NCBI GenBank assembly: GCA_963701285.1
Contig: OY969584.1
Span: forward strand, 1,979,877-2,043,876
From: an uncultured Chloroflexia bacterium
GTDB lineage: Bacteria > Chloroflexota > Dehalococcoidia > SM23-28-2
DNA length: 64,000 nucleotides
Direction of reading: 5' to 3'
In this document: positions 22,585-59,587 of the stretch, one piece after another
How the letters are laid out: each line of letters opens with the position of its first letter
Numbering within the stretch: position 1 is the stretch's first letter
Program-made: the position numbers and the translations under genes
Notes under the pieces: model-generated
Database searches by the model: none
What the model saw: only the letters and a program-made list of their open reading frames with translations
Told to the model about the DNA's origin: nothing

Positions 22585-22652
22585 ACCGCCTGAGCCAGGC
22601 CGGACGCAAAAGTAGCTGCGCCGGATCCCGCGTGGTATCCTAGGCCCCGATC

Positions 22653-25283: not shown

Positions 25284-25297
25284 GCCACCTCCATGCT

Positions 25298-45298: not shown

Positions 45299-45588
45299 CC
45301 CCTCCGCGTCTTCTGCCTCGCCCTGGCTCTTCCCGCTCACCCCGAGGCTGTCGAAGCATGTAGCGGAGACCTGTGGAAGGCTGAAACCTTCCGCTACATC
45401 TGTCCGCCAGGCCGTAGCTGGTTCGTAGTTGGTGGGTCTTGAGCTTCCGGTTCCCTCACGACCCTCGCCCTTAGGCTGGGGCACGGGAAGCCATCCGATG
45501 CCCCCGCCTAGAAGCGGGGGTGGAGAATCAACCCGCCAACCGCGAACCGACCACCAACCGCGAACCGATCACGCCGGCCCCCACCGGT

Positions 45589-45618
45589 TTGCCCCAGGGC
45601 AAAGGCGGGCGCTATAAT
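45589..45618 (+). promoter_or_regulatory. candidate promoter of the gtrA-GT2-ftsY-DUF2298 operon (TTGCCC-N18-TATAAT)
   Basis: TTGCCCcaggg at 45589; consensus TATAAT at 45613-45618. Architecture duplicated at 55676-55705. Confidence 0.4.
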
Positions 45619-45661
45619 GCCTTCGCTTTCACAGGGAGGCGGCTGCCGCGACAGCTCGAAG

Positions 45662-46216
45662 ATGCGCAGACCTCGTTGCTTCTCGGAATCGCCCGTGGCT
45701 GTGAGCCCAGGGTATGGGCGGCTCGCTGCCTGGCGCGACCACGCCGCCGCCAGACTGGCGGCCTCCCCCACATTCGTCCGGTTCCTCATCGTTGGCGCCA
45801 TCGGCTACCTAGTCAACCAGTTCTTTCTCTACCTCCTCTACGATTCGCCCGCCTTCCCCGTTCTGCCCGCAAAGGACACCAGCGCGCGCATCCTCTTCTT
45901 CACCCACCCCGACGTCCGGCTGCTCATCGCCACCGTCGTGGCGGTGGAACTAGCCATCCTCTCCAACTTCCTCTGGCACAACCTCTGGACCTTCAGCGGT
46001 TACACCCGTCGCCTGCCTATGCTCCTGCGCTTCGTCGCCTTCAACGTCACCTCCATCGGCAGCCCCATCATCTCGGTCACCACCGTCAACGTCCTGACCC
46101 CCCGCTTCGGCGTCAACGTCTACGCCGCCAACTCCATCGGCATCGCGCTGGGCATGACCTGGAACTGGGTGTGGAACACCCAGCTCATCTGGCGCAAGGG
46201 TGGAGAGCCCATCTGA
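45662..46216 (+). CDS. GtrA-family membrane protein (polyprenyl-phosphate-sugar flippase family)
   Basis: FVRFLIVGAIGYLVNQFFLYLL ... ELAILSNFLWHNLWTF (GtrA hallmark). Start is either ATG 45617 or 45662. Confidence 0.7.
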   Translation: MRRPRCFSESPVAVSPGYGRLAAWRDHAAARLAASPTFVRFLIVGAIGYLVNQFFLYLLYDSPAFPVLPAKDTSARILFFTHPDVRLLIATVVAVELAILSNFLWHNLWTFSGYTRRLPMLLRFVAFNVTSIGSPIISVTTVNVLTPRFGVNVYAANSIGIALGMTWNWVWNTQLIWRKGGEPI

Positions 46217-46229
46217 CGCTCCCCCGCTC

Positions 46230-47000
46230 ATGACCAGCGAACCACGCCTCTCCCTGGTGATCCCCGCCTACAACGAGGCGCTTAACCTGCGACGCGGCAT
46301 CCTCCAGCAGGTGGCCGACTACCTGGCGAGCCGCTCCTACGCCTGCGAGGCGCTGGTGGTGGACGACGGCAGCACAGACGAGACGGCATCGCTGGCGGAG
46401 GCGTTCGCCCAGGAGCACCCATGCTTCAGCCTGCTACGCGAGCGTCATCGGGGAAAGGCCATGGCGGTGCGCGCTGGCGTGCTCGCCGCCCGTGGCCGCT
46501 ACGTCCTCTTCGCCGACCTGGACCTTTCGACGCCCCTTTCCTACATCCACCCCTTCGTGGAGCTGCTGGACGGCGGCTGGGACATCGTCATCGCCTCCCG
46601 CGAGGCGAAGGGCGGCGCCCGCCTGGGGGCGCCTGTCCAGCGGCGCGCTATGGGCAGGGTGTTCAGCCTGCTGGTGCGCCTGCTCCTGCTCCCCGGCATC
46701 TACGATAGCCAGTGCGGGTTCAAGGGCTTCCGCCGCGAGGTGGCCCACGACCTCTTCCGCAGCCTGCGCCTGTTCCGGGGCGAGGCGAGCGAGGTGAGCG
46801 GGCCGCGAGTCACCGCCTTCGACGTGGAGCTCCTCCTCCTGGCCCGCAAGAAGGGCTACACCATCCGCGAGGTGCCAGTGCTCTGGCGTCACGTCGAGAC
46901 CAAACGGGTGAACCCTGTGCTGGACTCCTATCGTATGCTCCGCGAGGTGCTCATCGTCTGGTGGAACGACCGCCGCGGCCTATACGGCCGGCCGCGGTGA
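46230..47000 (+). CDS. GT2-family glycosyltransferase (polyprenyl-phosphate sugar synthase, GtrB/DPM1-like)
   Basis: LSLVIPAYNEALNL..VVDDGSTDETA..VLFADLDLSTP (DxD), with C-terminal amphipathic/TM segments. Start is ATG 46230 or GTG 46200. Confidence 0.8.
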   Translation: MTSEPRLSLVIPAYNEALNLRRGILQQVADYLASRSYACEALVVDDGSTDETASLAEAFAQEHPCFSLLRERHRGKAMAVRAGVLAARGRYVLFADLDLSTPLSYIHPFVELLDGGWDIVIASREAKGGARLGAPVQRRAMGRVFSLLVRLLLLPGIYDSQCGFKGFRREVAHDLFRSLRLFRGEASEVSGPRVTAFDVELLLLARKKGYTIREVPVLWRHVETKRVNPVLDSYRMLREVLIVWWNDRRGLYGRPR

Positions 47001-47012
47001 GACCCATAGCGC

Positions 47013-48026
47013 TTGATCCACGCTTGCGGGCAATGCTATGATCCATCCGACCGCCCCCGGCACGGGAGGTTGTATCTGTTCAAACGGCTGGGCCACTCCC
47101 GAGAGTCCGAAGACAAGACCGCCGATGCCCTCGACCGCACCCGCCGCACCTGGTTCCGGAGGGTAGCGGGGCTTTTCGAACGTTCCCACGTCGACGACCA
47201 GCTCTGGGACGAACTGGAGGAGCTTCTGATCGGCGCCGACGTCGGCGTCGCAACGACCGTTGGCCTCATCGAACGTCTGCGCACCCGCGCCAAGGAAGAG
47301 GGGATGAAGCAGCCGGCCGCGGTGCGCCAGGCCCTGAAGCAGGAGCTGACGACCATCCTCGCCGTGGACGGTGGCGTCGGCCGGCTCTGGGGCGAGACGG
47401 GAACCTTTCCACCGAAGCCGGCCGTTATATTGGTAGTGGGCGTCAACGGCACCGGCAAGACAACCAGCGTCGCCAAGCTGGCCGCAGCCCTGCAGGCTGA
47501 GGGCAAGCGGGTGACGCTGGCCGCCGCCGACACCTTCCGCGCCGCCGCCATTGACCAGCTCTGCCAGTGGGGCCAGCGAGTCGGGGTGGAGGTGGTGGCC
47601 CACCAGCAGGGGGCCGATCCTGCTGCGGTCGTTTTCGACGCCCTCAGCGCTGCGCAGAGCCGCGGCGCCGACGTGCTCATCATCGATACGGCCGGCCGCC
47701 TTCACACGAAGGTCAACCTGATGGAGGAGCTGCGCAAGATCCAGCGCATCATTCAGCGCAAGGATCCGTCGGCGCCACACGAGGTGCTGCTGGTGCTGGA
47801 CGCTACCATGGGCCAGAACGCCCTCCTCCAGGCCAAGTACTTCGCCGAGGCCGTGCCGGTGACCGCCATCCTTCTGGCCAAGCTCGACGGCACCGGCAAG
47901 GGGGGCATCGTCTTCGCTGTGTGCGATCAGTTGGGCATCCCCGTGCGCTTCGTGGGCACCGGCGAGGGCGAGGACGACCTGGCCCCCTTCCAGGCAGACG
48001 AGTTCGTGGAGGCACTCTTCGCCTAG
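47013..48026 (+). CDS. ftsY: signal recognition particle receptor FtsY (start codon uncertain, TTG in track)
   Basis: [34 protein letters not shown]...[20 protein letters not shown]...DTAGRLH; SRP GTPase. Confidence 0.85.
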
Positions 48027-48056
48027 CCCCCATCGCGGGGCGGGCCGCTGACGGCC

Positions 48057-50747
48057 ATGAGAGAAACGATCATCTGGTGGTCGGCCATTCAGGTTGTGGG
48101 GCTTGTCGCCTTCCCGATGACCTTCGCCTTCTTCCAGCGCCTGCCGGACCGCGGCTACGCCTTTGCCAAGCCCCTGGGCCTGGTCTTCCTGGGCTACATC
48201 CTCTGGATGGGGGCCACCATCGGCCTGTTCCCCAACGGGCGCGGTGCCGTCATCCTCATCCTGGTCGTCCTGGCCATCGTGTCGCTCATTGTGGCCAGCC
48301 GCCGCTGGCGGGAGATGGGCGATTTCCTGGCCCGCAACTGGACCTACGTCCTCTTCGTCGAGGTGCTGTTTGCGGTTGCCCTTGTCGTCGCCGCCTACCT
48401 CCGCTCCTACGTCTCCGAGATCGCCTGGACGGAGAAGCCCATGGACCTGGCCTTCCTGAACGCCGTCGTGCGCGGCGACAAGTTCCCTGTCCAGGACCCC
48501 TGGCTGGCCGGCCATTCCGTCCCCCTCTACTACTTTGGCCACGTGATGATCGGTGCCCTAACCTTGCTCACCGGTCTGCGTACCGGCGTCACCTTCAACC
48601 TCGGTCTGGCCCTCATCGGCGCCCTCGCTGCCATCGCCATCTTCGGCCTCGTGTACAACCTGCTCATCGGGCGCGGGCGGCCGCGGGCGGCCTTAGTCTT
48701 CGGTATGGTAGCGGTGGGCCTGCTGCTGGTCCTGTCCAACATGGAGGGCCTCTTCGAGCTGTTGGCCCGCCACGGCGTGGGAAACGCCCGCTTCTACTCA
48801 CTGGTCGGCATCGACGGCCTGAACGGCCCCACCGACTGCAAGACGAATGCCGGCGATTGCACAGACTGGTATCCTACCGCCTGGTGGTTCTGGTGGCGGG
48901 CGACCCGCATCGCCACCCAGTGGGACTGGCGAGAGTTCCCCTTCTTCACCTTCCTCCTGGGGGACCTCCACGCTCATCTGATGTCGATACCGTTCGTGCT
49001 GATGGCCTTGGGCATTGCCCTGAACACCCTGCGCTGGCAGGGGCCGCTGGTAGGCGGGCTATGGCCAGGCGTCGCCTCGTCGCTGAATCGCCTGCGGGAC
49101 AGCTTCCAGGGCCGGTTGCCCGGCACGACGGCCCTTTCGTCGGTGACGCCGATCCCGCCCGGGGCCTATCCCGTCGCTGCGGAGCGCAGTCTGGGCGTCT
49201 TAGCCTCGGCCTGGGAGGGCCTTACTTTCTGGATCGCCTGTCCGGCCCGCTTCCTGGCCATGTCGGTGCTGCTGGGCTCCCTGGGCTTCATCAACTCCTG
49301 GGACCTGCCGACCTTTCTGGGCTTGGTCGCCTTCATGGCCGGCGTCCGCAACTATCTTGTCGAAGGCCGCCTGACCGCAAGCGTCGTCGGCCGGACGCTG
49401 GGCTTCACCGTGCCCCTAGCGGTCCTGTCCTTCGTCCTGTACCTGCCGTTCTACCTGAACTTCCACCCCGTGGGCGGCGCCATCTTGCCCATCCAGCTCG
49501 CCACCATCAAGGGCTGGCCTCCGATAGAGACGATGGCCACGCGGCCCCATCACTTCGCCTACCTGTGGGCCACCATTCTCTGGCCTACCGTGACCTTCGC
49601 CGTTGCCGCGCTGGGGCCTTGGAAGCTGAACCGCTCCATCCTGCGCTGGGCGCTGCTGCCCGCCTTCGTGCCGTTCCTTGCCTGGCTATTCCTGGTCACC
49701 GCCCACCAGGGGCCGCTGGGCCTCATCGACGAGATCCGGATCCGTGGTGTCTGGTGGGTTACCTTGATCTTCCTGCTGGTGACGGTGACCGTGCCCGCCC
49801 TCGCCTTCGGCCGCTATCTGCTAAGGGCCAGGGACAAGGAGAACGGGGAGCGCGAAGACGACGAGAACCTGGCCTTCGTCCTCGCCTTGGGCGGAGTGGC
49901 CATCCTCATCCTGCTGGGCACCGAGCTGTATTGGGTAGAGGACCCGGTGGGTGTGCGCTCCAACACCGTCTTCCGCCTGAACTACCAATCGTGGATCATC
50001 CTCGCCGTCAGCGGCGCCGTGGGCCTGTACTACATCACCTCGCGCTGGCGGCTCAGCACCGTCCTGACCTCGGTCCCGCGCCTGCTGTGGGTGGGTGGCA
50101 CGATTTTCTTCTTCGGCGCCGGCCTGGTCTACCCGGTCATCGCCAGCATGAACCGCACCGTCGGCTTCACCACCCACCCCTACCTCGACGGCCTGGCCGC
50201 CATGCAGGCTGGCAACCCGTCCGAGTTTGAGGCCGTGCGCTGGCTGCAGGACAACGTCAAGGGAACACCGATCATTCTGGAGGCCGTGGGCGGAGACTAC
50301 AGCTCCGCCGGCCACGGCCGCATCTCGTCCCGCACCGGCCTGCCTACTCTGCTGGGCTGGCCTGACCACGAGTACCGCTGGCGCAACTCGTGGGAGGTGC
50401 AGGGCACCAAGATGCCGGATCGCGCCGAAGGAAACGGCGCCCCGGCGGGGTCCTGCCACGACGGTCTCGACAACGACGGCGACGGCACCATCGACGCCCA
50501 GGACACCGACTGCCGTATCGACCTAGACGTGAAGGAGGCCTACCAGACAACCAGCCCGGAGCGGGCTCGCACGATCCTGGAGACGTACGGCGTCCAGTAC
50601 GTCTACGTTGGATCGCTGGAGCGCGAGACCTACGGCGAGGACGGGATGAGCAAGTTCGCCTCCTTCATGGAGGTGGCCTTCCAGAATAGCGGCGTCACCA
50701 TCTACAGCATGCCTGGCACGGGGCAGATCTCCGTGCGCGCGCCCTGA
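48057..50747 (+). CDS. chlor_Arch_YYY / DUF2298 family membrane protein, paralog 4 (896 aa) with EF-hand/dockerin-like Ca loop insert
   Basis: Motif set FQRLPDRGYAF, EKPMDLAFLNAVVRGDKFPVQDPWLAGHSVPLYYFGH, GDLHAH, LPFYLNFHP, GVTIYSM, plus insert CHDGLDNDGDGTIDAQDTDC. Confidence 0.85.
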   Translation: MRETIIWWSAIQVVGLVAFPMTFAFFQRLPDRGYAFAKPLGLVFLGYILWMGATIGLFPNGRGAVILILVVLAIVSLIVASRRWREMGDFLARNWTYVLFVEVLFAVALVVAAYLRSYVSEIAWTEKPMDLAFLNAVVRGDKFPVQDPWLAGHSVPLYYFGHVMIGALTLLTGLRTGVTFNLGLALIGALAAIAIFGLVYNLLIGRGRPRAALVFGMVAVGLLLVLSNMEGLFELLARHGVGNARFYSLVGIDGLNGPTDCKTNAGDCTDWYPTAWWFWWRATRIATQWDWREFPFFTFLLGDLHAHLMSIPFVLMALGIALNTLRWQGPLVGGLWPGVASSLNRLRDSFQGRLPGTTALSSVTPIPPGAYPVAAERSLGVLASAWEGLTFWIACPARFLAMSVLLGSLGFINSWDLPTFLGLVAFMAGVRNYLVEGRLTASVVGRTLGFTVPLAVLSFVLYLPFYLNFHPVGGAILPIQLATIKGWPPIETMATRPHHFAYLWATILWPTVTFAVAALGPWKLNRSILRWALLPAFVPFLAWLFLVTAHQGPLGLIDEIRIRGVWWVTLIFLLVTVTVPALAFGRYLLRARDKENGEREDDENLAFVLALGGVAILILLGTELYWVEDPVGVRSNTVFRLNYQSWIILAVSGAVGLYYITSRWRLSTVLTSVPRLLWVGGTIFFFGAGLVYPVIASMNRTVGFTTHPYLDGLAAMQAGNPSEFEAVRWLQDNVKGTPIILEAVGGDYSSAGHGRISSRTGLPTLLGWPDHEYRWRNSWEVQGTKMPDRAEGNGAPAGSCHDGLDNDGDGTIDAQDTDCRIDLDVKEAYQTTSPERARTILETYGVQYVYVGSLERETYGEDGMSKFASFMEVAFQNSGVTIYSMPGTGQISVRAP

Positions 50748-50756
50748 GTCCACGCC

Positions 50757-52502
50757 ATGTCAGCCATCATCGACCCGCAAGGAGCAGCCTTCGTTCCGCC
50801 CACGCCGGCAGCGGCGGCGGCCGTCGCGCCGGCCAGGGTGGTGGGCCTCTCGATGAGCCTGGAGACCGTGGTCTGGGTGACCCTCATCGGCGTAGCCGCC
50901 GCCTTCCGCCTGGCGCGCCTCGACCACCTCCCCCTGACCGTGAACGAGTCGGCGCGGGCCCTGGCCTCCTGGCAGACGTCCCAGGGGCACGTCCCCGCCG
51001 ACTGGAGCGGCGACATGAGCCAGGCCATGACCTCCTACCTGTTCGCCATCTTCGGCGCTGGCGACCTGCTGGCCCGCCTGTTGCCCGCCCTTCTGGGCTG
51101 CCTGACAGTGGCCCTGCTCTGGCCTCTAGCCCGCTACGTGGGCGCTTCCGCCTTGCTGGCCGCTGTCCTGGTCGCCCTCTCGCCGCTGCTGGTGCACGTC
51201 TCACGCAGCGGCCTGCCCTACGCCGCCGGCGCCGCTCTATCGCTGGCCATGGTGGTGGCGTTCTTCGCCTTTGTCAGGACACGTTCGCCCGTCAGCCTGC
51301 TCGCCCTGGGCCTGGCCGCCGGCCTCGCCTTAGGCAGCGACGCCGTATCCACGTCAACCGCGATGCTCCTGCTGGCCTTCCTGGTGCTGGAGGCTACTGT
51401 GATCCGGTCGCCGGACATCGGCGAGAGGCTGGCCGAGGTGCGGCGGAGCCCCGCCCTCGGCGTCAGCGTTCTGTTGATCTTCCTGGGTTCCCTGGAGCTG
51501 GCGGTGACCCGCTTCGGCACCGATATCGACCGCGTGAGCCTGCCGGCGCTGCGCCTGTGGACGGGCATGTTCGACCTGCCCCGCGATAGCTTGCCCTGGC
51601 ACTTCCATCCCAACCTGCTCGTCGGGTACGAGGCGCCCGCCCTCATCCTGGGGACGGTTGGCTATCTGTGGGTCCTCTATCGGTGGCTGAAGACCAAGGG
51701 CGAGAGCATCCCCCTCTTCCAGCGCTTCCTCATCGTCTGGGCCAGCGGCGCGGCGTTGATCATCGCCGTCACTACCCGCCGCGAGGCGGGCCAGCTCGTC
51801 CTGTTGCTCCTACCGCTGGCCCTGCTGGCTGGCTGCTGGCTGGAGACCCTGGTGGCCGAGCTGAACCTTGCCTCGCTGGTGCGGTCGCTGCCGTTCCTCG
51901 TTCCCGGCCTGTTCGCGGTGGGCTACATCGCCCTGGAGCTCACCGAATGGTCGCGCAACCACGATGTCAATGAGACCGCGCTGGTCCTGGTGGCCGGCGG
52001 CGGCGTTGCCCTGCTGTGGCTTGCCTGGAACGTCTTGGGGCGCCAGGCGATCACCGGCTATTTCGTCCTAGGCTCTCTCGTCTCCCTAGTGTTCCTCGTC
52101 CACGGCGCCACGTCCGTCGCTTACGGACGGGGGAGCGAGCCCCTGGCCGACCAGCGCCTGGACCGCCAGGTTCCACGCCTGGAGAGCCAGCTGGCCGGCA
52201 TGGGCGGCGAGGAGGGGGCCATCGGCGCCGATATGTCCTTCATGAGGCCGCTGGGTTGGTACCTGCGCGACGTGCCCGGCCTGGTGTTCACGTATTCACC
52301 CCCGGCAAACGCCGTCGCCTACCTAGCCGTGCCGGGGACGACGGTACCCATTGGCTACGGCCTAGAGCGGACGTGGCCCATAGCCGAAGGGTGGGTGCCC
52401 AGCAGCATCGACCCGCTGAGCTGGTGGCGATGGCTGGTTTACCGAGAGCCCTACGGTGGTCTAACATCAACTGAGGCGGACTTACTGGTGAAAGCACCAT
52501 GA
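50757..52502 (+). CDS. polytopic membrane protein, divergent PMT/ArnT-like (TIGR03663-like) putative glycosyltransferase
   Basis: 581 aa, about 12 TM helices; N-terminal loop LDHLPLTVNESARALASW aligns with the DES..HGP loop of the next gene. Start uncertain. Confidence 0.55.
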   Translation: MSAIIDPQGAAFVPPTPAAAAAVAPARVVGLSMSLETVVWVTLIGVAAAFRLARLDHLPLTVNESARALASWQTSQGHVPADWSGDMSQAMTSYLFAIFGAGDLLARLLPALLGCLTVALLWPLARYVGASALLAAVLVALSPLLVHVSRSGLPYAAGAALSLAMVVAFFAFVRTRSPVSLLALGLAAGLALGSDAVSTSTAMLLLAFLVLEATVIRSPDIGERLAEVRRSPALGVSVLLIFLGSLELAVTRFGTDIDRVSLPALRLWTGMFDLPRDSLPWHFHPNLLVGYEAPALILGTVGYLWVLYRWLKTKGESIPLFQRFLIVWASGAALIIAVTTRREAGQLVLLLLPLALLAGCWLETLVAELNLASLVRSLPFLVPGLFAVGYIALELTEWSRNHDVNETALVLVAGGGVALLWLAWNVLGRQAITGYFVLGSLVSLVFLVHGATSVAYGRGSEPLADQRLDRQVPRLESQLAGMGGEEGAIGADMSFMRPLGWYLRDVPGLVFTYSPPANAVAYLAVPGTTVPIGYGLERTWPIAEGWVPSSIDPLSWWRWLVYREPYGGLTSTEADLLVKAP

Positions 52503-55500
52503 CCGAGGTGACGACGGCCGTACCGACCCCTGAGACGAGCCCCCTGGCGCGTCTGGCAGCCTTTCGCCTGCGCTTGGACTGGGAGCTTGCCTTCTACCTG
52601 CTCCTGATCGCCGGCGGCGGGGCGCTGCGCTTCTGGGACCTGGGCGCCCGCGCCTTCCACCACGACGAGAGCCTCCATGCCACCTACAGCTGGTACCTCT
52701 TCAACGGCAGCGGCTACGAGCACATGCCCATGATGCACGGCCCCTTCCAGTTCTTCGGCCGCGCTTTCTTCTTCGTCCTCTTCGGCGTCAGCAACTATTC
52801 GGCGCGCATCCTGGATGGCTTCTCCGGCACGGTACTCATCGCTATGCCCGTCTTGTTCCGCAACCGCCTGGGGCGGATGGGGGCGCTGGCGGCGGCGGCC
52901 TTCATTGCCCTATCGCCAACGCTGCTGTACTACAGCCGCTTCGCCCGCGAAGACATTCACATGGCCGTCTGGACACTGGGGCTGGTTATCTGCCTCTGGC
53001 GCTACGTGGATGGGGGACGCCATCGCTGGCTGTACCTTGGGGCCGCCTTCCTGGCCCTGAGTTTCGCCACCAAGGAATCCACGTACCTCAACGTCGCCAT
53101 CATCCTCATCTTCCTGAACCTGTGGCTGGCCCAGAGTCTGACGGCGCGTGCCCGCCAGCTGAACAACCTCGACTCGTTCTCTGCCGTCTGCCTGTTCATT
53201 CTGCTGGTGCCGTTCGCCTGGCTGATCGTTGCCCTGAGGCCGTTCCTGAACGATAGCTGGCGCAAGTCCCTGGGTGCCGACCAGGTGCCTCGCCAGGCCG
53301 ACTTCCTCATCCTCCTGGGAGCGTTATCGGCACCCCAGTTGGCGGCCATTGTCCAGAAACCCTTCGAATGGTTCCTGGGCTGGACGCACGCCGATTTCGC
53401 CCGCCACCTGCTCACCCTCAACCTCGGCCTCCTCGGCGGCCGCCACGACGTCAGCAACGTGCAGTTCATCGGCTTCTTCACCGTGGCTAGCCTTATCGCC
53501 GGCACCATGGTCGTCGGCTTGCGCTGGAACCTGCGCTCGTGGCTCATCGCGGCGGGCATCTTCTACGTCATCTACGGCCTGCTGTACACGACCTTCCTCA
53601 CCAACCCCACTGGTTTCGGTTCGGGCATCTGGGGCTCCCTGGACTACTGGCTCCAGCAGCAGAGCGTGCAGCGGGGCGGCCAGCCCTTCTACTACTACCT
53701 CCTGCTCCTGCCCATCTACGAGTTCCTGCCCCTGGTCATCGCTTTGCCTGCCGTGGCCTATCAGTTCATCCGCGGCAACGCCTTCGGCCGCTTCCTGGCC
53801 TTCTGGCTGGTGGGCGCCCTCTTGGCCTATTCCTACGCCGGCGAGAAGATGCCCTGGCTCAATGTGCACCTGGCCCTGCCGACGATAATCCTGGCGGCCT
53901 ACACGCTGAATCAGATGTGGACGGCGACCCACCATCGCGACTGGCGCTTCCGCCTCCCATCTGCCGCCTGGCCGGCGGCAGCGGCAGCGCTGGGGGGGGG
54001 AGCGATGGCTTTCGGCGTGTTCGGCCCCAGCGACCCCGCGACCGGCATTCTCGTGGGCCTGGCGGCAGTCCTGGCCATCGCCGCCCTGACGGTCTCGCTG
54101 CGCGGCCGCACCATGGCGGTGATGCCGGTAGCGGCGGTAATGGGCCCGCTGATGGTGTTCAGCGTGCGAGTGGCTTGGATGGCCAGCTTCGCCAGCGGCA
54201 ACGGCGCTGACGCGCGCGAGATGCTGGTCTACACTCAGTCCACGCCCGACATCCCCCAGGTGATGCGCCAGATCGACGAGTGGGCCGCCCAGACCGGGCT
54301 CGGCCACGACCTGCCCATCGATGTGGACGGCACCGACGCCTTCACCTGGCCCTGGGCCTGGTACCTCCGCGACTACCACAAGGTCCAGTACCCCAGCATG
54401 AACGAGAACTATCAGCCGCAACCCGATGCGAACGGCAATTATCCGGTGGTGCTGGTGAACGCCGGCAACGATAGCAAGGTCCAGCCCAAGCTGACCGCCT
54501 ACAACGAGGGCGAGCCTTATCACCACCGCTGGTGGTTCCCCGAGATCTACCGCAACATCGAGCTCGACAAGAACGGTCAGACGAAGCCTGTGCTCACCAC
54601 CTTCCGCGATTTCCTGGCCAGCATGGGGAACGGCGACACCTGGCAAACCTGGTGGCACTACTGGCGCGACCGTCAGCTACCGGAGGGCAAGGGCTCGGTG
54701 GACGCTGTGGCCTACTTCCCGCGCGACTACAAGCCGTCGGGCGGGCCGGTGATCAGCCAGCCCCTGCAGCCGCCCAAGGCTGAGGACGGCGGCCGCCTCA
54801 CCATCGGCGGCTACGGCGCCGCTGAGGGCCTGTTCATTAAGCCGGCCGGCCTGGCGGTGGACCAGCAGGGCAACCTCTACGTAGCCGACAGTGGCAACAA
54901 TCGCATTCAGAAGTTCGACCCGACCGGCCTTTTCCTGGCCCAGGTGGGCAGCGCCGGCACGGGCAACGGCCAGTTCAGCCAGCCCTGGGGTGTCGCCGTC
55001 GACGCCCAGGGCAACGTTTTCGTCGCCGACACCTGGAACCATCGAGTCCAGAAGTTCAACCAGGACCTCCAGTACGTGACCCAGTGGGGCAAACCGGCCT
55101 CGGACCTGAAGAACCCCAAGAACGATGAGTTCTGGGGCCCGCGCGACCTGACGGTGGATGCTGAGGGCAACGTGTGGGTGGCCGATACCGGCACCAGTCG
55201 CATCCTGAAGTTCGATGCGAATGGCACCTACCTGGCAACGCTGGGCGGACCTGGCTCCGAGGCGGGCAAACTGAGCGAGCCCGTGGGCGTCGAGATCGCC
55301 GCCAACGGCGACGTCTACGTCGCCGACGCCTGGAATGCCCGCATCCAGACATTCGACAAGGACCTGAAGCAACTGGCGACCTTCCCGGCACCCGGCTGGC
55401 TGGCCAATGACCCCCTCACCGAGCCGTACCTGGCCCTTCTGCCCGATGGCGGCATTGTCGCCAGTGATCCCGCCCACGACCGGGTCGTGCGCTTCCAGCC

Positions 55501-55657
55501 CGATGGCAATGTCGCCGCCATCTACGGGGGCCCCGGCGGGACCGGTGTGGCCGGCCCCAGCGGCCTGGCCGTCTCCGGCGACTTTCTGTTCATCTCCAGC
55601 AACGCCACCAACATCGTGCGGCGTATCCCGCTGAGCGACCTGGCGACGACGCCCTAG
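52499..55657 (+). CDS. TIGR03663-like / PMT_2-like membrane glycosyltransferase fused to C-terminal NHL-repeat beta-propeller (1052 aa)
   Basis: N-terminal FHHDESLHATYSW...MMHGPFQFF (DE and HGP motifs). Residues ~770-1052 hold six NHL repeats (NLYVADSGNNRIQKFD, NVFVADTWNHRVQKFN, NVWVADTGTSRILKFD, DVYVADAWNARIQTFD...). Confidence 0.75.
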   Translation: MTEVTTAVPTPETSPLARLAAFRLRLDWELAFYLLLIAGGGALRFWDLGARAFHHDESLHATYSWYLFNGSGYEHMPMMHGPFQFFGRAFFFVLFGVSNYSARILDGFSGTVLIAMPVLFRNRLGRMGALAAAAFIALSPTLLYYSRFAREDIHMAVWTLGLVICLWRYVDGGRHRWLYLGAAFLALSFATKESTYLNVAIILIFLNLWLAQSLTARARQLNNLDSFSAVCLFILLVPFAWLIVALRPFLNDSWRKSLGADQVPRQADFLILLGALSAPQLAAIVQKPFEWFLGWTHADFARHLLTLNLGLLGGRHDVSNVQFIGFFTVASLIAGTMVVGLRWNLRSWLIAAGIFYVIYGLLYTTFLTNPTGFGSGIWGSLDYWLQQQSVQRGGQPFYYYLLLLPIYEFLPLVIALPAVAYQFIRGNAFGRFLAFWLVGALLAYSYAGEKMPWLNVHLALPTIILAAYTLNQMWTATHHRDWRFRLPSAAWPAAAAALGGGAMAFGVFGPSDPATGILVGLAAVLAIAALTVSLRGRTMAVMPVAAVMGPLMVFSVRVAWMASFASGNGADAREMLVYTQSTPDIPQVMRQIDEWAAQTGLGHDLPIDVDGTDAFTWPWAWYLRDYHKVQYPSMNENYQPQPDANGNYPVVLVNAGNDSKVQPKLTAYNEGEPYHHRWWFPEIYRNIELDKNGQTKPVLTTFRDFLASMGNGDTWQTWWHYWRDRQLPEGKGSVDAVAYFPRDYKPSGGPVISQPLQPPKAEDGGRLTIGGYGAAEGLFIKPAGLAVDQQGNLYVADSGNNRIQKFDPTGLFLAQVGSAGTGNGQFSQPWGVAVDAQGNVFVADTWNHRVQKFNQDLQYVTQWGKPASDLKNPKNDEFWGPRDLTVDAEGNVWVADTGTSRILKFDANGTYLATLGGPGSEAGKLSEPVGVEIAANGDVYVADAWNARIQTFDKDLKQLATFPAPGWLANDPLTEPYLALLPDGGIVASDPAHDRVVRFQPDGNVAAIYGGPGGTGVAGPSGLAVSGDFLFISSNATNIVRRIPLSDLATTP

Positions 55658-55675
55658 GCTGGTGGACTCTGCGCG

Positions 55676-55705
55676 TTGCCCAGGGGAGTTGTCGCAGCCT
55701 ATAAT
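55676..55705 (+). promoter_or_regulatory. candidate promoter of the flippase-like/FAD-oxidoreductase operon (TTGCCC-N18-TATAAT)
   Basis: gcgcgTTGCCCaggggagttgtcgcagccTATAATtgg; same -35, spacer length and -10 as the promoter at 45589. Confidence 0.4.
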
Positions 55706-55749
55706 TGGGCTTGCCTGCTGGTGCAGGCCGGGAAAACAGGAAGTTTCGT

Positions 55750-56772
55750 TTGCTGCGTAGCCGCCAACTCTGGCTCGGGATAATGGGGACGGCCCTGTTC
55801 CTGGGCCTCTTTTTCTGGCGCACCGACCTGGGCGACATGGCCGACGCCCTGGCCGACGCCAACTACTGGTGGTTCGCCCCCGCCGTCGCCCTCTGGTTTG
55901 TCTCCGCCTGGTTCCGCTCGGTGCGCTGGCGCTACCTGCTGCGGCCCATCGCCGACCTTCCCGCGCGGACGCTGTATCCGGTGGTGATTATCGGCTACAT
56001 GGCCAACAACCTTCTGCCTGCACGGACAGGCGAGCTGGTGCGAGCCTACGTCATGGGCGAACGCCACCGCGTGAGCCTGATGGGCACCCTGGGCACCATC
56101 GCCGTGGAACGCCTCTTCGATGGGCTGGTGCTGCTGGCGTTCCTGGTGCTGGTGGGCGCTTTTGTCGGCCTCAGCCGGGAGCTGACCGTCCTGGCCATCG
56201 CCATGTCCGTCATTTTCGCAGCCGTATTCGCCGTCTTCCTCTACGTTGCTTCGTCCGCCGAGCGGGCGCAGCGGGTCATCGGTGCGCTGGTGCGCCTGCT
56301 GCCCGCCCGTGCCCGCGAGCGGGCTCGCGGCTGGGCGGGCGGCTTCGTGGCCGGGCTCGAGGCTCTGCGCAGCCCCGCTGCCCTGACCGCCGTGGTGCTC
56401 ACCTCAACGGTGGCTTGGGCGCTGGAAGGCACCATGTACTTTATGGTGGGCGTCGCATTCAACCTGGGCGAGGCCTTCCCCATCTATCTGATGGTTGCCG
56501 CCGCGGCCAACCTGGCGATAACTCTGCCCTCCACCTCTGGCGGCATCGGCCCCTTCGAGGCGCTGGCCAAGGAGACGCTGGTATTCGTGGGCGTGGGCAC
56601 GTCGGCGGCAGCCGCCTATGCGGTGGCCCTCCACGCACTGCTACTCCTGCCGGTGGTGGCGGTCGGGCTCATCTTCCTCTGGATGATCAACCTATCCCTG
56701 GGCGAGGCGCTGCGCCGCCCGGCCCGCCCCGCTCTGGCCGCCAGCGTCAGCCAGGGGGAGGTCAGCGAGTGA
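55750..56772 (+). CDS. flippase-like (UPF0104 / lysyl-PG synthase TM-region family) membrane protein
   Basis: 8 TM helices; YPVVIIGYMANNLLPARTGELVRAYV is characteristic of pfam03706. TTG at 55750 has AGGAAG 8 nt upstream; alternatives are ATG 55783 and TTG 55705. Confidence 0.65.
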   Translation: MLRSRQLWLGIMGTALFLGLFFWRTDLGDMADALADANYWWFAPAVALWFVSAWFRSVRWRYLLRPIADLPARTLYPVVIIGYMANNLLPARTGELVRAYVMGERHRVSLMGTLGTIAVERLFDGLVLLAFLVLVGAFVGLSRELTVLAIAMSVIFAAVFAVFLYVASSAERAQRVIGALVRLLPARARERARGWAGGFVAGLEALRSPAALTAVVLTSTVAWALEGTMYFMVGVAFNLGEAFPIYLMVAAAANLAITLPSTSGGIGPFEALAKETLVFVGVGTSAAAAYAVALHALLLLPVVAVGLIFLWMINLSLGEALRRPARPALAASVSQGEVSE

Positions 56773-58118
56773 AGGTCTGTGTCATCGGTGGCGGCGTCGG
56801 TGGCCTGACGGCCGCCTACCGCCTGTGCCAGCGCGGCTTCCAGGTACACCTGCTGGAGGCCAGTCCCAGCCTGGGCGGCCTGGTGGGCATTTTCGAGATC
56901 GGCGGGAGCCGCATCGAGCATTTCTACCACCATATCTTCTCCACCGACACCACCATCGCCTCCCTGATCGACGAGCTGGGCCTAGGCGATCGCCTTGTTT
57001 GGCGGGAGTCGAAGGTGGGCATCTTCTACGACGGACGCATCTACAACTTCGTGACGCCTATGGACCTGATGCGCTTCACGCCGCTGCCCCTGGCCGACCG
57101 GATTCGCCTGGGCCTCGTGGGCCTCTACCTGCGCCGGCAGAACGACTGGCGCCGCTACGAGGGGGTGACCGCCGCCGACTGGATCAGGCGCTACGCCGGC
57201 CGCCGCAACTACGAGGTGGTCTGGGGCCCGCTGCTGCGGGGCAAGTTCGGCCTGCGCGCGGACGACGTAAGCATGGCCTGGTTTTGGAGCAAGATCCACC
57301 TGCGCTTCGCCTCGCGCAAGGGCGGCCCGCTCCAGAAGGAGCACCTCGGCTATCTGCTGGGCAGCTTCGGCCTGCTGGTCGACGTGCTGGCTGAGCGCAT
57401 CCGCGAGCTGGGCGGGGTTCTGGAGACGAACCGGCCGGTGCAACGCGTGGTGGTGGAGGAGGGGCGAGCGGTTGCCCTCGAGGTCGGTGGCGACAGACCC
57501 AAGCGCCTCGATTGCGACGCCGCGATCGCCACGGTGCCCAGCGGGGCCTTCCTCAGCATCGTGCCGGGCCTGCCGGACGAGTACGCCGCCAAGCTGAGCG
57601 CCGTACAGTACCAGTGGGCGTTGTGCCTGGTGCTGGCCCTCAAACACTCGCTCTCGTCCATTTACTGGATGAACATGAGCGACAGCAGCGCCCCCTTCCT
57701 GGCCCTCATCGAGCACACCAACTTCATCGAGCGCGAGCGCTACGGCGGCCGCCACGTCGTCTATCTGTCCAACTACCTGGACGAGGCGTCGCCGCTGCTG
57801 AAGATGGACATGGAAGAGCTCTGCCAGCTCTTCTTCCCCCATCTCCAGCGCGTCAACCCCGCCTTCTCCCAGGACTGGGTGGCCGACCGCTGGCTCTTCT
57901 GCGGTCCCTACGCCCAGCCCATCATCGGTACCCACTACTCCCGCTCCATCCCCGAGCAGCGGACGCCCATTTCGGGGTTGTACCTGGCGAACATGACCCA
58001 GATCTACCCCGAGGACCGCGGCCAGAACTACAGCATCCGCCTGGGGGACCAGGTGGCAGCCCTGGTCGCCGAGGATCTCCAGCTTGGCCAAGAGAAGCCC
58101 GTCTCCAGGCCGGCCTAG
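56769..58118 (+). CDS. NAD(P)/FAD-dependent oxidoreductase (amine-oxidase / phytoene-desaturase fold)
   Basis: GTG start overlapping the upstream stop (GTGA), GGGGGAGG 10 nt upstream; VKVCVIGGGVGGLTAAYRLCQRGFQVHLLEASPSLGG dinucleotide motif. Track ORF 55869..58118 is an out-of-frame extension. Confidence 0.75.
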   Translation: MKVCVIGGGVGGLTAAYRLCQRGFQVHLLEASPSLGGLVGIFEIGGSRIEHFYHHIFSTDTTIASLIDELGLGDRLVWRESKVGIFYDGRIYNFVTPMDLMRFTPLPLADRIRLGLVGLYLRRQNDWRRYEGVTAADWIRRYAGRRNYEVVWGPLLRGKFGLRADDVSMAWFWSKIHLRFASRKGGPLQKEHLGYLLGSFGLLVDVLAERIRELGGVLETNRPVQRVVVEEGRAVALEVGGDRPKRLDCDAAIATVPSGAFLSIVPGLPDEYAAKLSAVQYQWALCLVLALKHSLSSIYWMNMSDSSAPFLALIEHTNFIERERYGGRHVVYLSNYLDEASPLLKMDMEELCQLFFPHLQRVNPAFSQDWVADRWLFCGPYAQPIIGTHYSRSIPEQRTPISGLYLANMTQIYPEDRGQNYSIRLGDQVAALVAEDLQLGQEKPVSRPA

Positions 58119-58257
58119 CGCCCTGGCCGGTGGCGACGCCAACGCCGCAGACGCCGACACCAAGCGGCGCCACGAGAGCATCTGGCAGGAGTTCCTCCGC
58201 CGCCCGGCCGTATTCGTTCTCAACCCGCGCATCTTCAGCACTCCGGGAGTCGTCGCC

Positions 58258-58833
58258 ATGCTGAGCGTTCAGGCGCCGGTCGCCGACCCCGCAGTCGGTC
58301 AGCGCCTGCGCGACCTGATGGCGGGCCTGCAGCACATCCCCTGCATCGAGCCCTTCCCCGACCGCCAGTGGCACCTGACCATCGTCCCGCCGGCCCTGCT
58401 GACGACGGAGAACCCGCGACCGCCCCTCCTCCTGCCCGATGGTTTCCAGCGCGACGCCCTACAGCCCATGAGAGAGGCGGCGCGTGGTTATGGCCCCTTC
58501 GAGGTGCGCCTCCAGGGACTGAATGTGTTCCAGCATGTCCTAGTGGCCGAGGCCTACGACGGAGGCCATATGGCAGAGCTGCGCCGGCGACTCATCGTGG
58601 CGGTGCCCCAGTTCCCCGAGAAGTACTGGAATGTGCTGTCTCCTCTTCCCCACGTGTCGCTGGCCCGGTTCACGTGCACGGAAGGGGTCTCGCCGCTACG
58701 CGACGCCCTGACCCAGCGGCGAGACGTCTACCTGGGAACGCTACGGGTGACACACGTCGACCTGGTGCGGACGCCACTGCGAGAGGGCGTCTTCGGCGAG
58801 GCGGAGAAAGAGGCCATACCGCTATCCGGATAG
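58258..58833 (+). CDS. 2H phosphoesterase superfamily protein (LigT / 2'-5' RNA ligase-like)
   Basis: Two H-x-[TS]-x motifs (WHLTIVPP and PHVSLARF) at the expected spacing; about 190 aa from ATG 58258. Confidence 0.6.
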   Translation: MLSVQAPVADPAVGQRLRDLMAGLQHIPCIEPFPDRQWHLTIVPPALLTTENPRPPLLLPDGFQRDALQPMREAARGYGPFEVRLQGLNVFQHVLVAEAYDGGHMAELRRRLIVAVPQFPEKYWNVLSPLPHVSLARFTCTEGVSPLRDALTQRRDVYLGTLRVTHVDLVRTPLREGVFGEAEKEAIPLSG

Positions 58834-59092
58834 CGCTTCGAATGGTGCCGCTCATGGTGAGCCTGTCGAACCATGAGCGGAGGGGGAACAAGCGTCTATG
58901 CTGCGGGCTCCAGCAACAACCACTATCTGCCCTTGAACCCACGGTCGCAGCGGTCTATGATCGATAACGCATCGCACAATGAAGCTAGCCTACAGCAGCG
59001 TCAGAATTGTCTTTCACCCCGCCTCAAGGCGGGGGCGCAGATGTCGCCACGTTTGATCCAAGATTCCTTGCTAATCTAGGAAGGCCCGCCAC

Positions 59093-59587
59093 TTGACCGA
59101 GACCGCCGAGTCGCCGACGGAGCTGGAAGCTCTGGTGGCAGACCTCAAACCCGACGACGCCGGCCTCCTGGCCGTCCTTCATCGCATCCAGGAGGCGTAC
59201 GGGTACGTCCCGCCGGAGGCCATCCCTCTGCTGGCCACCAAGCTGCGGACCACGCCGGCCAGGGTCTTTGGCGCCATCTCCTTCTACTCGGAGATCCGCA
59301 CCGAGCCGCCGCCGCGTCTCGCTATCTCCTGGTGCAGCGGCCCGGCCTGCCGCCTGAAGGGCTCGGAGAATATCCGGCGGGCCATGGAGGCCATCCTCGG
59401 CATCGGTCTGGGCCAGAGCACGCCCGACCGGGCCCTGGGCCTGCGCCTGCACCAGTGCGATGGCACCTGCTCACTGGCGCCCCTCATCCGCCTGAACGGC
59501 CGCCCGCGCGGGCCGCTTACCGTCAGCGAGGCCATTCGCCTGGCGCGCGAGCTGCGCGAGCGAGGAAGAAACGGCCAGAAGACATGA
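59093..59587 (+). CDS. NuoE/HoxE-like thioredoxin-fold [2Fe-2S] protein
   Basis: Four Cys in the NuoE pattern (WCSGPAC ... CDGTCSLAP); TTG start; stop overlaps the next gene (ATGA). Confidence 0.7.
   Translation: MTETAESPTELEALVADLKPDDAGLLAVLHRIQEAYGYVPPEAIPLLATKLRTTPARVFGAISFYSEIRTEPPPRLAISWCSGPACRLKGSENIRRAMEAILGIGLGQSTPDRALGLRLHQCDGTCSLAPLIRLNGRPRGPLTVSEAIRLARELRERGRNGQKT

Follow-up and report, generated by a model that had tools for sequence, protein, structure and literature searches.

The locus at positions 45589-58118 of the window (the whole 64 kb stretch of DNA analysed, from an uncultured Dehalococcoidia-like Chloroflexota bacterium) is read, with somewhat better than even confidence, as a housekeeping envelope-glycosylation neighbourhood on an rnc-smc-ftsY backbone, with three transcription units working in the manner proposed below. 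Most likely, it makes a lipid-linked sugar and hands the sugar to three large glycosyltransferase-like membrane proteins outside the cell. The nine genes of the region all lie on the + strand, and the gene list of the earlier note was borne out: all genes were found in the same order and with the same overlaps, and the domain assignments stand. The gtrA and GT2 genes overlap by 17 nt (or are 13 nt apart if ATG 46230 is the GT2 start), the DUF2298 gene and the gene for the Agl23-like protein a are separated by 9 nt, the genes for the Agl23-like proteins a and b share an ATGA overlap, and the UPF0104 and oxidoreductase genes share a GTGA overlap. The proposed layout of two operons was not confirmed, since a conserved ftsY promoter splits gtrA-GT2 from the GT-C genes. 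Because three promoter-like sites are conserved, the sequence most likely encodes three units, not two: gtrA-GT2, ftsY-DUF2298-a-b/NHL, and UPF0104-FAD oxidoreductase.

The three sites were found by a promoter scan, all on the + strand. P1 (TTGCCC-18-TATAAT, 45589..45618) lies 5' of gtrA, P2 (TTGATC-18-TATGAT, TG-extended, 47013..47042) lies between GT2 and ftsY, and P3 (TTGCCC-18-TATAAT, 55676..55705) lies 5' of UPF0104. P1 and P3 are the only occurrences of the TTGCCC-18-TATAAT pattern in the 64 kb, where none is expected by chance. In related loci, the hexamers of both are conserved and the spacers are variable. Of the 10 loci bearing gtrA, 9 keep the P1 hexamers 5' of it (in the tenth, gtrA begins at the contig edge), and about 30 loci, with protein identities as low as about 48%, keep those of P3 5' of UPF0104. 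P2 was kept 5' of ftsY in related loci with or without gtrA-GT2. Accordingly, the two promoters of the earlier note are both conserved sites, and their number has to be raised by P2.

The ftsY gene, encoding the SRP receptor (47076..48026, + strand; TIGR00064, 353.6 bits against a cut-off of 260.7), most likely starts at CTG 47076; 12 related loci keep the GGAGG-6 nt-CTG arrangement at ftsY, in most cases with an in-frame stop closely preceding it. Among 80 metagenome loci, ftsY and its promoter lie directly 5' of the GT-C genes in 35 of the 39 that are informative. The order ftsY-(DUF2298)-TIGR03663 is kept down to 37% identity, and relatives with DUF2298 identities as low as about 56% keep the full gene block. 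The earlier note had regarded ftsY as embedded among the glycosylation genes. This was not confirmed, because rnc-smc-ftsY is the ancestral order: ftsY is part of this backbone, and the glycosylation genes joined around it. The neighbourhood of rnc, smc, ftsY, nuoEF and mutS is syntenic across the clade, and therefore the conserved adjacency may be partly inherited, not functional.

The GtrA-like protein (45662..46216, + strand; PF04138, 62 bits) is a four-helix membrane protein. Since ATG 45617 runs into the -10 hexamer, ATG 45662 was chosen as the start. Among solved structures, the protein matched only the Pyrococcus DPMS 5mlz, over its membrane domain (residues 256-372; E 2.7e-8). The GT2 (46200..47000, + strand; PF00535, 92 bits), for which ATG 46230 is a second possible start, is a candidate polyprenyl-phosphate hexosyltransferase. 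Its nearest solved relatives are 5mlz (3e-16, matched over residues 23-190), ArnC and GtrB, all polyprenyl-phosphate glycosyltransferases, which supports its earlier designation as a polyprenyl-P-sugar synthase. The NCBIfam models that it matches weakly, dolichyl-phosphate hexose transferase and PpgS among them, all stay short of their equivalog cut-offs; NF041391, the haloarchaeal model for dolichyl-phosphate hexose transferase, gave 52 bits against a cut-off of 375. A DLD motif occupies residues 106-108, and no hydrophobic stretch of membrane-spanning length was found C-terminal of the catalytic domain. Together, the two proteins look like a split polyprenyl-phosphate hexosyltransferase of the DPMS type. 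As in Pyrococcus furiosus DPMS, a catalytic domain with a DXD motif (GT2) is paired with a four-helix membrane domain (GtrA-like protein), but here the halves are two genes in reversed order, the membrane half first. The role of GtrA as a flippase, assumed earlier, keeps its place as one possible reading beside this structural match.

Three-component lipid-phosphate-sugar systems are known from Shigella (GtrA/GtrB/Gtr-type) and from Bacillus and Listeria (CsbB-GtcA-YfhO). Like these, the locus combines a GtrB/ArnC/DPMS-related GT2, a GtrA-family protein and nearby GT-C-fold proteins. It differs from them in that the GT2 itself has no membrane helices, the GtrA-like protein resembles a detached membrane domain, the GT-C partners belong to the DUF2298 and TIGR03663 families, and most related loci lack the donor cassette, which here stands behind a separate promoter. 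The gtrA-GT2 pair was present in 3 of the 29 informative TIGR03663 loci among the 80 metagenome loci, in close relatives only, and is evolutionarily separable from the GT-C genes. Because the pair has a promoter of its own and most TIGR03663 loci lack it, adjacency within a single lineage is all that links it to the GT-C genes. The linkage drawn by the earlier note is weakened by this count, which comes close to what that note itself had named as evidence against it. The sugar that GT2/GtrA would load is probably glucose, because galU (TIGR01099, 334.8 bits, cut-off 326.8) adjoins the other DUF2298 genes of the window (paralogs 1-3, 20227-27697). In addition, galU homologs adjoin the gene for protein b in two related loci (L085 and L089).

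The UPF0104/PplT protein (55750..56772, + strand; PF03706, 149.7 bits; TIGR00374, 79.7 bits, cut-off 43.2) has an MprF-type flippase domain. Its start is probably TTG 55750, with AGGAAG-6 nt ahead, since TTG 55705 overlaps the -10 hexamer; gene calls of 340-341 aa in relatives support this start. The gene that follows (56769..58118, + strand) encodes an FAD oxidoreductase of the uncharacterised PRK07233 family (NF005560/PRK07233, 506.5 bits, cut-off 252; PF01593, 120 bits), within the amine-oxidase/phytoene-desaturase superfamily. The HpnE model gave only 88 bits, with its cut-off at 283. Modification of a lipid-linked sugar by an oxidoreductase and an SDR has a parallel in mycobacterial DprE1/DprE2. 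The pairing of this oxidoreductase with the SDR of the window, suggested earlier for such a role, found no support, given the superfamily of the former and the closest likeness of the latter, a FabL-type enoyl-ACP reductase (score below the cut-off). UPF0104 and the oxidoreductase are translationally coupled in the window and always adjacent in related loci. They are read as a lipid-modifying enzyme with an MprF-type flippase. UPF0104 genes adjoin the gene for the enzyme making the lipid presumed to be flipped (PMC12713373; bioRxiv 2022.03.11.483950). Moreover, in an archaeal neighbourhood (Makarova et al. 2015), UPF0104 (arCOG00899), an MprF-type flippase, occurs with an AglD-like GT2 and a PMT/STT3-like protein (arCOG00563), the three kinds of protein also present here (PMC5898192). 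Unlike in that set, the UPF0104 of the locus is separate, without a GT2 fusion, and is coupled to the PRK07233 oxidoreductase, a partner that the passages describing the archaeal set do not mention.

The Agl23-like protein a (50757..52502, + strand) is a divergent paralog that scored 74.1 bits with TIGR03663, below the family cut-off of 126.25, and 39.9 bits with PMT_2. It lacks about 130 residues that form a loop/helix segment, and its family motifs are degenerate (HHDES to TVNES, HGP to SGD, EKMPW to RREAG); among its orthologs, the DE motif varies in its first residue. Protein b (52499..55657, + strand), fused to a six-bladed NHL beta-propeller, passed the same cut-off with 257.6 bits, has a strong predicted PMT/ArnT-like GT-C fold and keeps the PMT-like DE motif. 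TIGR03663, called uncharacterised in the earlier note, is in fact the Agl23 family (PMC11182771). In Haloarcula hispanica, Agl22 is a dolichol-phosphate-hexose synthase and Agl23 a TIGR03663 protein described as a putative hexose-phosphate-dolichol flippase; purified Agl23 flipped a lipid-linked glycan in liposomes (PMC11182771). The locus would follow the same logic, a lipid-phosphate-hexose donor with an Agl23-family user (PMC11182771). Unlike the haloarchaeal case, the host is bacterial, Agl23 is doubled into a conserved b and a degenerate a, b is fused to the NHL propeller, and the genes are grouped in the ftsY transcription unit.

DUF2298/TIGR03662 paralog 4 (48057..50747, + strand; DUF2298, 298 bits; TIGR03662, 433 bits) is predicted to combine a GT-C fold with an oligosaccharyltransferase-type C-terminal domain on the extracytoplasmic side. 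The earlier proposal of GT-C candidates was thus upheld for both DUF2298 and TIGR03663 at the level of predicted folds. In profile-to-profile comparison, the two families showed no similarity to each other or to solved GT-C enzymes. The Arg-rich loops of DUF2298 (residues 83-94, 205-210, 587-604 and 662-672) place its conserved acidic loops (EKP, DPW, DLHAH) and C-domain outside the cell. With the oligosaccharyltransferase catalytic subunits AglB/STT3/PglB, DUF2298 has in common the predicted GT-C membrane core and the predicted fold of the C-terminal globular domain. The Foldseek TM-scores for DUF2298 were low (0.25-0.30). Unlike in those subunits, no WWDYG motif, STT3 Pfam match or sequence-level similarity to oligosaccharyltransferases was found, and the conserved motifs are proper to the family (EKP, DPW, YYY, D(L/I)HAH, GWPxHE). 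A genuine oligosaccharyltransferase-like DUF2298, using a lipid-phosphate donor to glycosylate proteins either en bloc or with single sugars and with four paralogs differing in acceptor or donor specificity, seems quite improbable. DUF2298, here and as paralogs 1-3, might also be the sole transferase, with the Agl23-like proteins acting purely as translocases of the lipid-linked sugar and GtrA and UPF0104 being redundant or serving other lipids. The movement of Man5GlcNAc2-PP-lipid across liposomes and the rescue of yeast rft1-delta by Haloarcula Agl23 (PMC11182771) favour this unlikely reading, as do the NCBI family name, 'flippase activity-associated protein Agl23', and the absence of the PMT-type Asp from a here and in several lineages, where the gene is still kept.

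The neighbourhood may also be coincidental: three functionally unrelated units, with GT2/GtrA in another pathway (glycolipid or wall-polymer decoration) and UPF0104-oxidoreductase modifying and flipping a lipid apart from glycosylation. The three separate conserved promoters and the scarcity of gtrA-GT2 agree with it, as does the conservation of the genes on either side (rnc, smc, nuoEF and mutS). Furthermore, the UPF0104-oxidoreductase pair stands alone in one locus (L090), with no TIGR03663 or DUF2298 gene within 9 kb, and is inverted in others (L009, L052, L062, L067, L068, L072), and the oxidoreductase, with at least 59% identity among the best 120 homologs listed, is far more conserved than the GT-C proteins. 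We nevertheless consider coincidence improbable. Despite inversions and insertions, the pair stays by TIGR03663 down to about 40% identity (L091), being found in its flank at 29 of 40 loci among the 80 metagenome loci; galU, GT4 and VTT/DedA genes appear in the same neighbourhoods; and in archaea, too, UPF0104 is found in the same triad with a PMT-like GT-C protein and a GT2 (PMC5898192).

In the preferred reading of a working glycosylation neighbourhood, the soluble GT2 of the first unit would be the catalytic half and the GtrA-like protein the membrane half of what is a single chain in Pyrococcus DPMS, and the two would charge polyprenyl phosphate with the hexose of an NDP-sugar at the cytoplasmic face. 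In the second unit, the ftsY promoter would drive the three GT-C-fold membrane proteins. Protein b, probably complexed with its degenerate partner a, would take up the lipid-phosphate-sugar, either to flip it or to draw on it as donor, or for both purposes; the acceptor may be held outside the cell by the NHL propeller of b. DUF2298 would pass a sugar or glycan on to an acceptor on the extracytoplasmic side, most likely an envelope/S-layer protein or a wall polymer. In the third unit, the FAD enzyme would act at the cytoplasmic face on a membrane lipid, possibly on its isoprenoid chain, and the MprF-type flippase would carry the product outward. The kind of system is already known, and one of its families, DUF2298, looks like the enzyme by which sugar chains are joined to proteins.

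Throughout the 45.5–58.2 kb region of the window (G+C about 67%), every long ORF with domain support lay on the plus strand. The locus opened with genes for a GtrA-like protein (PF04138, 62.1 bits against a cut-off of 26.1) and a GT2 glycosyltransferase of 266 aa (PF00535, 92 bits), followed by FtsY (TIGR00064, 353.6 bits) and the fourth DUF2298/TIGR03662 paralog of the window at 48057–50747 (PF10060, 298.4 bits against 27.8; TIGR03662, 433.4 bits against 300.25). The next two genes encoded TIGR03663/Agl23-like proteins. The first copy, T03663a (50757–52502), matched TIGR03663 weakly (74.1 bits, below the cut-off of 126.25), and the second, T03663b (52499–55657), which was fused to NHL repeats, exceeded that cut-off with 257.6 bits. 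A UPF0104/TIGR00374 protein (PF03706, 149.7 bits against 33.4; TIGR00374, 79.7 bits against 43.2) and an FAD oxidoreductase of the NF005560/PRK07233 family (506.5 bits against 252) completed the series. The gene overlaps claimed in the earlier note were all found, namely ATGA between T03663a and T03663b, GTGA between the UPF0104 and oxidoreductase genes, and −17 nt between gtrA and the GT2 gene. In general, what that note had observed held, but its interpretation did so only in part.

The RNase III (TIGR02191) and SMC genes were located upstream of the locus, and a 2′,5′-RNA-ligase-like ORF and nuoE/nuoF-like genes downstream. The ORF after the oxidoreductase, within 58084–61464, was related to a 2′,5′-RNA-ligase-family gene (PF13563 in the related locus L001), and a promoter-like site was present 3′ of it at 58933–58961. 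The 710-aa ORF from 59332 was probably over-extended; relatives carried separate nuoE-like (156–177 aa) and nuoF-like (620–638 aa) genes, whose counterparts in the window would be at about 59093–59587 and 59584–61464. Three further DUF2298 paralogs were found at 20–28 kb, adjoined by an SDR gene most like FabL (27684–28499) and by galU on the minus strand (28503–29408; TIGR01099, 334.8 bits against a cut-off of 326.8).

The sequence TTGCCC-18-TATAAT matched the 64 kb only at 45589 and 55676, with a chance expectation of 0, and the TATAAT hexamer itself occurred four times in the whole window. Both hexamers of these two promoter-like sites, P1 (45589–45618) and P3 (55676–55705), were kept in related loci while the spacers drifted. 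The P1 hexamers preceded gtrA in 9 of the 10 gtrA-carrying loci, the upstream region of the tenth being missing at a contig edge, and about 30 loci, reaching down to about 48% protein identity, had the P3 hexamers ahead of UPF0104. Furthermore, a third site, P2 (47013–47042), lay in the gap between the GT2 gene and ftsY as TTGATC-18-TATGAT with an extended TG, and was kept upstream of ftsY in relatives both with and without gtrA-GT2. The earlier note had listed two promoters and argued for operons. Given the three conserved promoter-like sites, we conclude instead that there are three units: P1-gtrA-GT2, P2-ftsY-DUF2298-T03663a-T03663b, and P3-UPF0104-oxidoreductase. Read-through from one unit into the next is possible. 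In this organization the GT-C genes share the promoter of ftsY, which is essential. The Rfam search of 40000–64000 returned no RNA element, and the scan for intrinsic terminators gave sites no commoner than in shuffled sequence. The spacer between smc and gtrA (45299–45588) was unusually long (318 nt) and contained a G+C-rich hairpin, cccccgc-ctagaa-gcggggg, at about 45503–45521, with neither a T tract nor an Rfam match.

The start of ftsY was compared between the window and loci L001, L003, L005, L008, L014, L020, L028, L035, L041, L043, L044 and L048. Downstream of P2, the arrangement GGAGG, 6 nt and CTGTTCAA(G/A) was kept (47064–47084 in the window). Most relatives had an in-frame TAG 6 nt upstream of the CTG, and the next canonical start was 29–76 codons downstream of it. 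The start codon of ftsY is therefore most likely CTG 47076, to judge from the conserved GGAGG-CTG and the upstream TAG, since a downstream start would delete conserved N-terminal sequence. The candidates TTG 47013 and TTG 47070 were rejected, because they lay in the conserved promoter or corresponded to a stop or TTC in relatives. Gene callers choose a downstream start, which gives a 241-aa FtsY without the N domain.

The nearest named relatives were uncultured Dehalococcoidia/Chloroflexota MAGs. The full order rnc-smc-gtrA-GT2-ftsY-DUF2298-T03663a-T03663b(NHL)-UPF0104-oxidoreductase-...-nuoEF recurred in other contigs, whose DUF2298 proteins were 82%, 66% and 56% identical to that of the window. 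The more distant locus L008 was without gtrA-GT2, and L009 was without gtrA-GT2, DUF2298 and the NHL fusion and had the UPF0104-oxidoreductase pair inverted. A DUF2298 scan of genome contigs gave three loci, and the wider synteny counts were made on metagenome contigs, where a scan with the T03663 membrane-domain alignment yielded 80 loci with 37–78% identity. These 80 loci, L008 and L009 were profiled by tblastn, and each gene was counted only among loci with enough flanking sequence. UPF0104 and the oxidoreductase occurred in the flank of 29 of the 40 informative loci, and DUF2298 lay between ftsY and T03663 in 23/39. From the oxidoreductase side, the pairing with UPF0104 was retained in all three loci, one of which had neither a T03663 nor a DUF2298 gene within 9 kb. 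According to these counts, the stable core consists of ftsY, T03663 (a/b) and the UPF0104-oxidoreductase pair, with DUF2298 as a frequent member.

The gene order rnc-smc-ftsY is widespread in bacteria. The earlier note had described ftsY as embedded in the locus; it is instead a backbone gene, and it stood directly upstream of the GT-C genes in 35 of the 39 informative loci. That note had also placed a donor module beside the GT-C genes, which was true of the window, but gtrA and GT2 occurred in just 3 of the 29 informative related loci. On these counts gtrA-GT2 is a cassette specific to the lineage of the window, an insertion that separates smc from P2. In locus L091 (5868–9004), GT4 (TreT-like) and VTT/DedA-domain genes were found between T03663b-NHL and UPF0104-oxidoreductase; DedA proteins have been implicated in lipid-carrier recycling.

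The best solved relatives of the GT2 protein were the Pyrococcus dolichol-phosphate-mannose synthase (DPMS; 5mlz residues 23–190, E 3e-16), ArnC and GtrB, which have in common the loading of a sugar onto polyprenyl phosphate. The protein contained a DLD motif, reached no cut-off of the NCBIfam equivalog models, and had no membrane-spanning stretch after its catalytic domain. Among solved structures, the GtrA-like protein matched this DPMS alone, in its C-terminal membrane domain (5mlz residues 256–372, E 2.7e-8). Because the two proteins match the two halves of one DPMS, the pair is best read as a putative split DPMS-type enzyme with swapped gene order. A gene for a small GtrA-family membrane protein next to a GT2 gene is also the arrangement of GtrA/GtrB/GT-C systems, and in the window the two genes overlap or abut. 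However, the GtrB-type GT2 has its own C-terminal membrane helices, and the GT2 protein of the window was without them. The Type III DPMS of Pyrococcus carries the catalytic and the GtrA-like four-helix domains in one polypeptide, whereas the window has two genes, the membrane half first. For a split DPMS, a flippase role of the GtrA-like protein is possible but not needed. The leading guess for the sugar is glucose, supplied as UDP-glucose, because galU adjoins DUF2298 paralogs 1–3 and, in two distant loci, T03663b is immediately followed by a galU homolog of about 60% identity (L085, about 3432; L089, about 13347).

The TIGR03663-like proteins had been described as uncharacterized GT-C candidates. 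Their predicted fold was in agreement with GT-C, but TIGR03663 is now the Agl23 family. It is named after Haloarcula Agl23, a putative flippase for hexose-phosphate-dolichol, and the purified protein flips Man5GlcNAc2-PP-lipid in liposomes (PMC11182771). In T03663b, residues D56-E57, H80-G81-P82, R44 and R103 were invariant or near-invariant in an alignment of 54 sequences, and the invariant DE lay immediately C-terminal to the first predicted membrane helix. These residues correspond to the DE dipeptide, the HGP tripeptide and the two Arg residues that we take to be the invariant N-terminal motifs of TIGR03663. T03663a differed from the family, with TVNES for HHDES (hence NE for DE), SGD for HGP and RREAG for EKMPW, and about 130 residues were missing from it. 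On this evidence T03663a is a separate, degenerate subfamily. Among its orthologs the Glu of DE was invariant, and the position before it varied: Asn in the TVNES of the window (residues 61–65; 50937–50951), Asp in the closest orthologs (57–78% identity), and E, R, A, Q, S or P in more distant ones.

The degenerate T03663a with its variable DE, together with the ATGA coupling, suggests that the two proteins may form a complex in which one subunit is catalytic and the other structural, by analogy with Pmt1-Pmt2. For the activity of such proteins, flipping is what the liposome result with Haloarcula Agl23 speaks for. Going by the predicted PMT-like fold and by the DE motif, transferase chemistry seems at least as likely as flipping.

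The DUF2298 protein was predicted to have a GT-C membrane fold, and the core fold of its modelled C-terminal soluble domain matched the C-terminal globular domains of oligosaccharyltransferases. In an independent comparison, Foldseek ranked AfAglB first (E 9e-6), with low TM-scores of 0.25–0.30. In the predicted topology, Arg-rich loops put the C-domain and the loops with the invariant EKP, DPW and DLHAH outside the cytoplasm. E126 and D147 were invariant, in a loop that the positive-inside rule assigns to the cell exterior, and Y158 was invariant in the alignment. At the YYYxG motif, paralog 4 read PLYYFG and paralog 1 SYYYFG, and paralogs 2 and 3 had no match to [A-Z]{2}YY[FY]G. An acidic repeat insert with paired cysteines, CHDGLDNDGDGTIDAQDTDC, was present in paralog 4 only (50403–50516, residues about 783–820); it matched NF033662 weakly (25 bits), was modelled with low confidence, and fits an extracytoplasmic, possibly calcium-binding, segment.

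WWDYG, searched as WWD[YWF]G, was absent from all four DUF2298 paralogs, all of which conserved GWPxHE. PF10060 was the sole Pfam match, with no match to Pfam STT3, and comparison with PDB sequences (phmmer with the single sequence, and a profile search) gave nothing relevant and no oligosaccharyltransferase. In addition, hhalign found no similarity between the DUF2298 and T03663 profiles. The protein is accordingly described, at the level of the models, as a probable GT-C protein with oligosaccharyltransferase-like architecture, for which STT3-family membership is not demonstrable. It is conceivable, though improbable, that DUF2298/TIGR03662 ('YYY', of Chloroflexota and Archaea) is an unrecognized, highly diverged oligosaccharyltransferase-like branch that glycosylates envelope proteins. 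Such a branch would combine a GT-C core with an AglB-type C-domain, have GWPxHE for WWDYG, and receive lipid-phosphate donors via Agl22/Agl23-type partners. The archaeal connection is based on the second Haloferax N-glycosylation pathway, for which we know of no identified transferase. If this were true, DUF2298 would be a candidate for AglB-independent archaeal protein glycosylation and for a native Chloroflexota protein-glycosylation system, that is, a new protein-glycosylating enzyme family common to Archaea and Chloroflexota. Literature searches found no functional study of DUF2298, TIGR03662, TIGR03663 or PRK07233.

In the window, UPF0104 was translationally coupled to the PRK07233 flavoenzyme. 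UPF0104 is an MprF-type flippase domain with archaeal neighbours that include a PMT/STT3-like protein and an AglD-like GT2 (PMC5898192), and bacterial UPF0104 adjoins the enzyme making the lipid thought to be flipped (PMC12713373; bioRxiv 2022.03.11.483950). The nearest solved relatives of the oxidoreductase were phytoene desaturase and protoporphyrinogen oxidase (E about 1e-8), and the protein was unusually conserved, with at least 59% identity among its best 120 homologs. It stayed under the cut-offs for HpnE (88.3 against 283 bits), the CrtI family (38.4 against 238) and protoporphyrinogen oxidase (TIGR00562, 40.3 against 97.85), and a reading of the oxidoreductase-UPF0104 pair as HpnE-HpnL was rejected on the HpnE score, which is far too low. 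The earlier note had speculated that the oxidoreductase and the SDR modify the lipid-linked sugar; such a role, akin to that of mycobacterial DprE1/DprE2, was unsupported on domain grounds. DprE1 carries a vanillyl-alcohol-oxidase-type FAD domain, and the oxidoreductase matched PF01593, PF13450 and related families only. As a dedicated partner the SDR was also rejected, being 28 kb away and most like the FabL enoyl-ACP reductase (147 bits against 328). Our working model, held with low confidence, is that the oxidoreductase would act at the cytoplasmic face on a membrane lipid, possibly an isoprenoid chain, and that UPF0104, as a putative flippase, would translocate the product.

The logic of the locus is the same as that of three-component lipid-phosphate-sugar glycosylation (GtrA/GtrB/GT-C; CsbB-GtcA-YfhO) and of the archaeal Agl22/Agl23 pair. 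It differs from these known systems in the split DPMS-like synthase, the Agl23 pair, of which one member is degenerate and the other fused to NHL repeats, the DUF2298 protein with oligosaccharyltransferase-like architecture, the expression from the ftsY promoter, and the coupled flippase-oxidoreductase pair. Little is known of envelope assembly and decoration in Dehalococcoidia-type Chloroflexota. The locus offers testable parts, namely a putative synthase of lipid-phosphate-hexose in two pieces, an Agl23 pair of a conserved and a degenerate copy, an oligosaccharyltransferase-like DUF2298 protein and a flippase-oxidoreductase pair, all under conserved promoters. It also bears on whether Agl23 proteins flip, transfer, or do both, a question on which the predicted fold and the DE motif speak for transferase chemistry.
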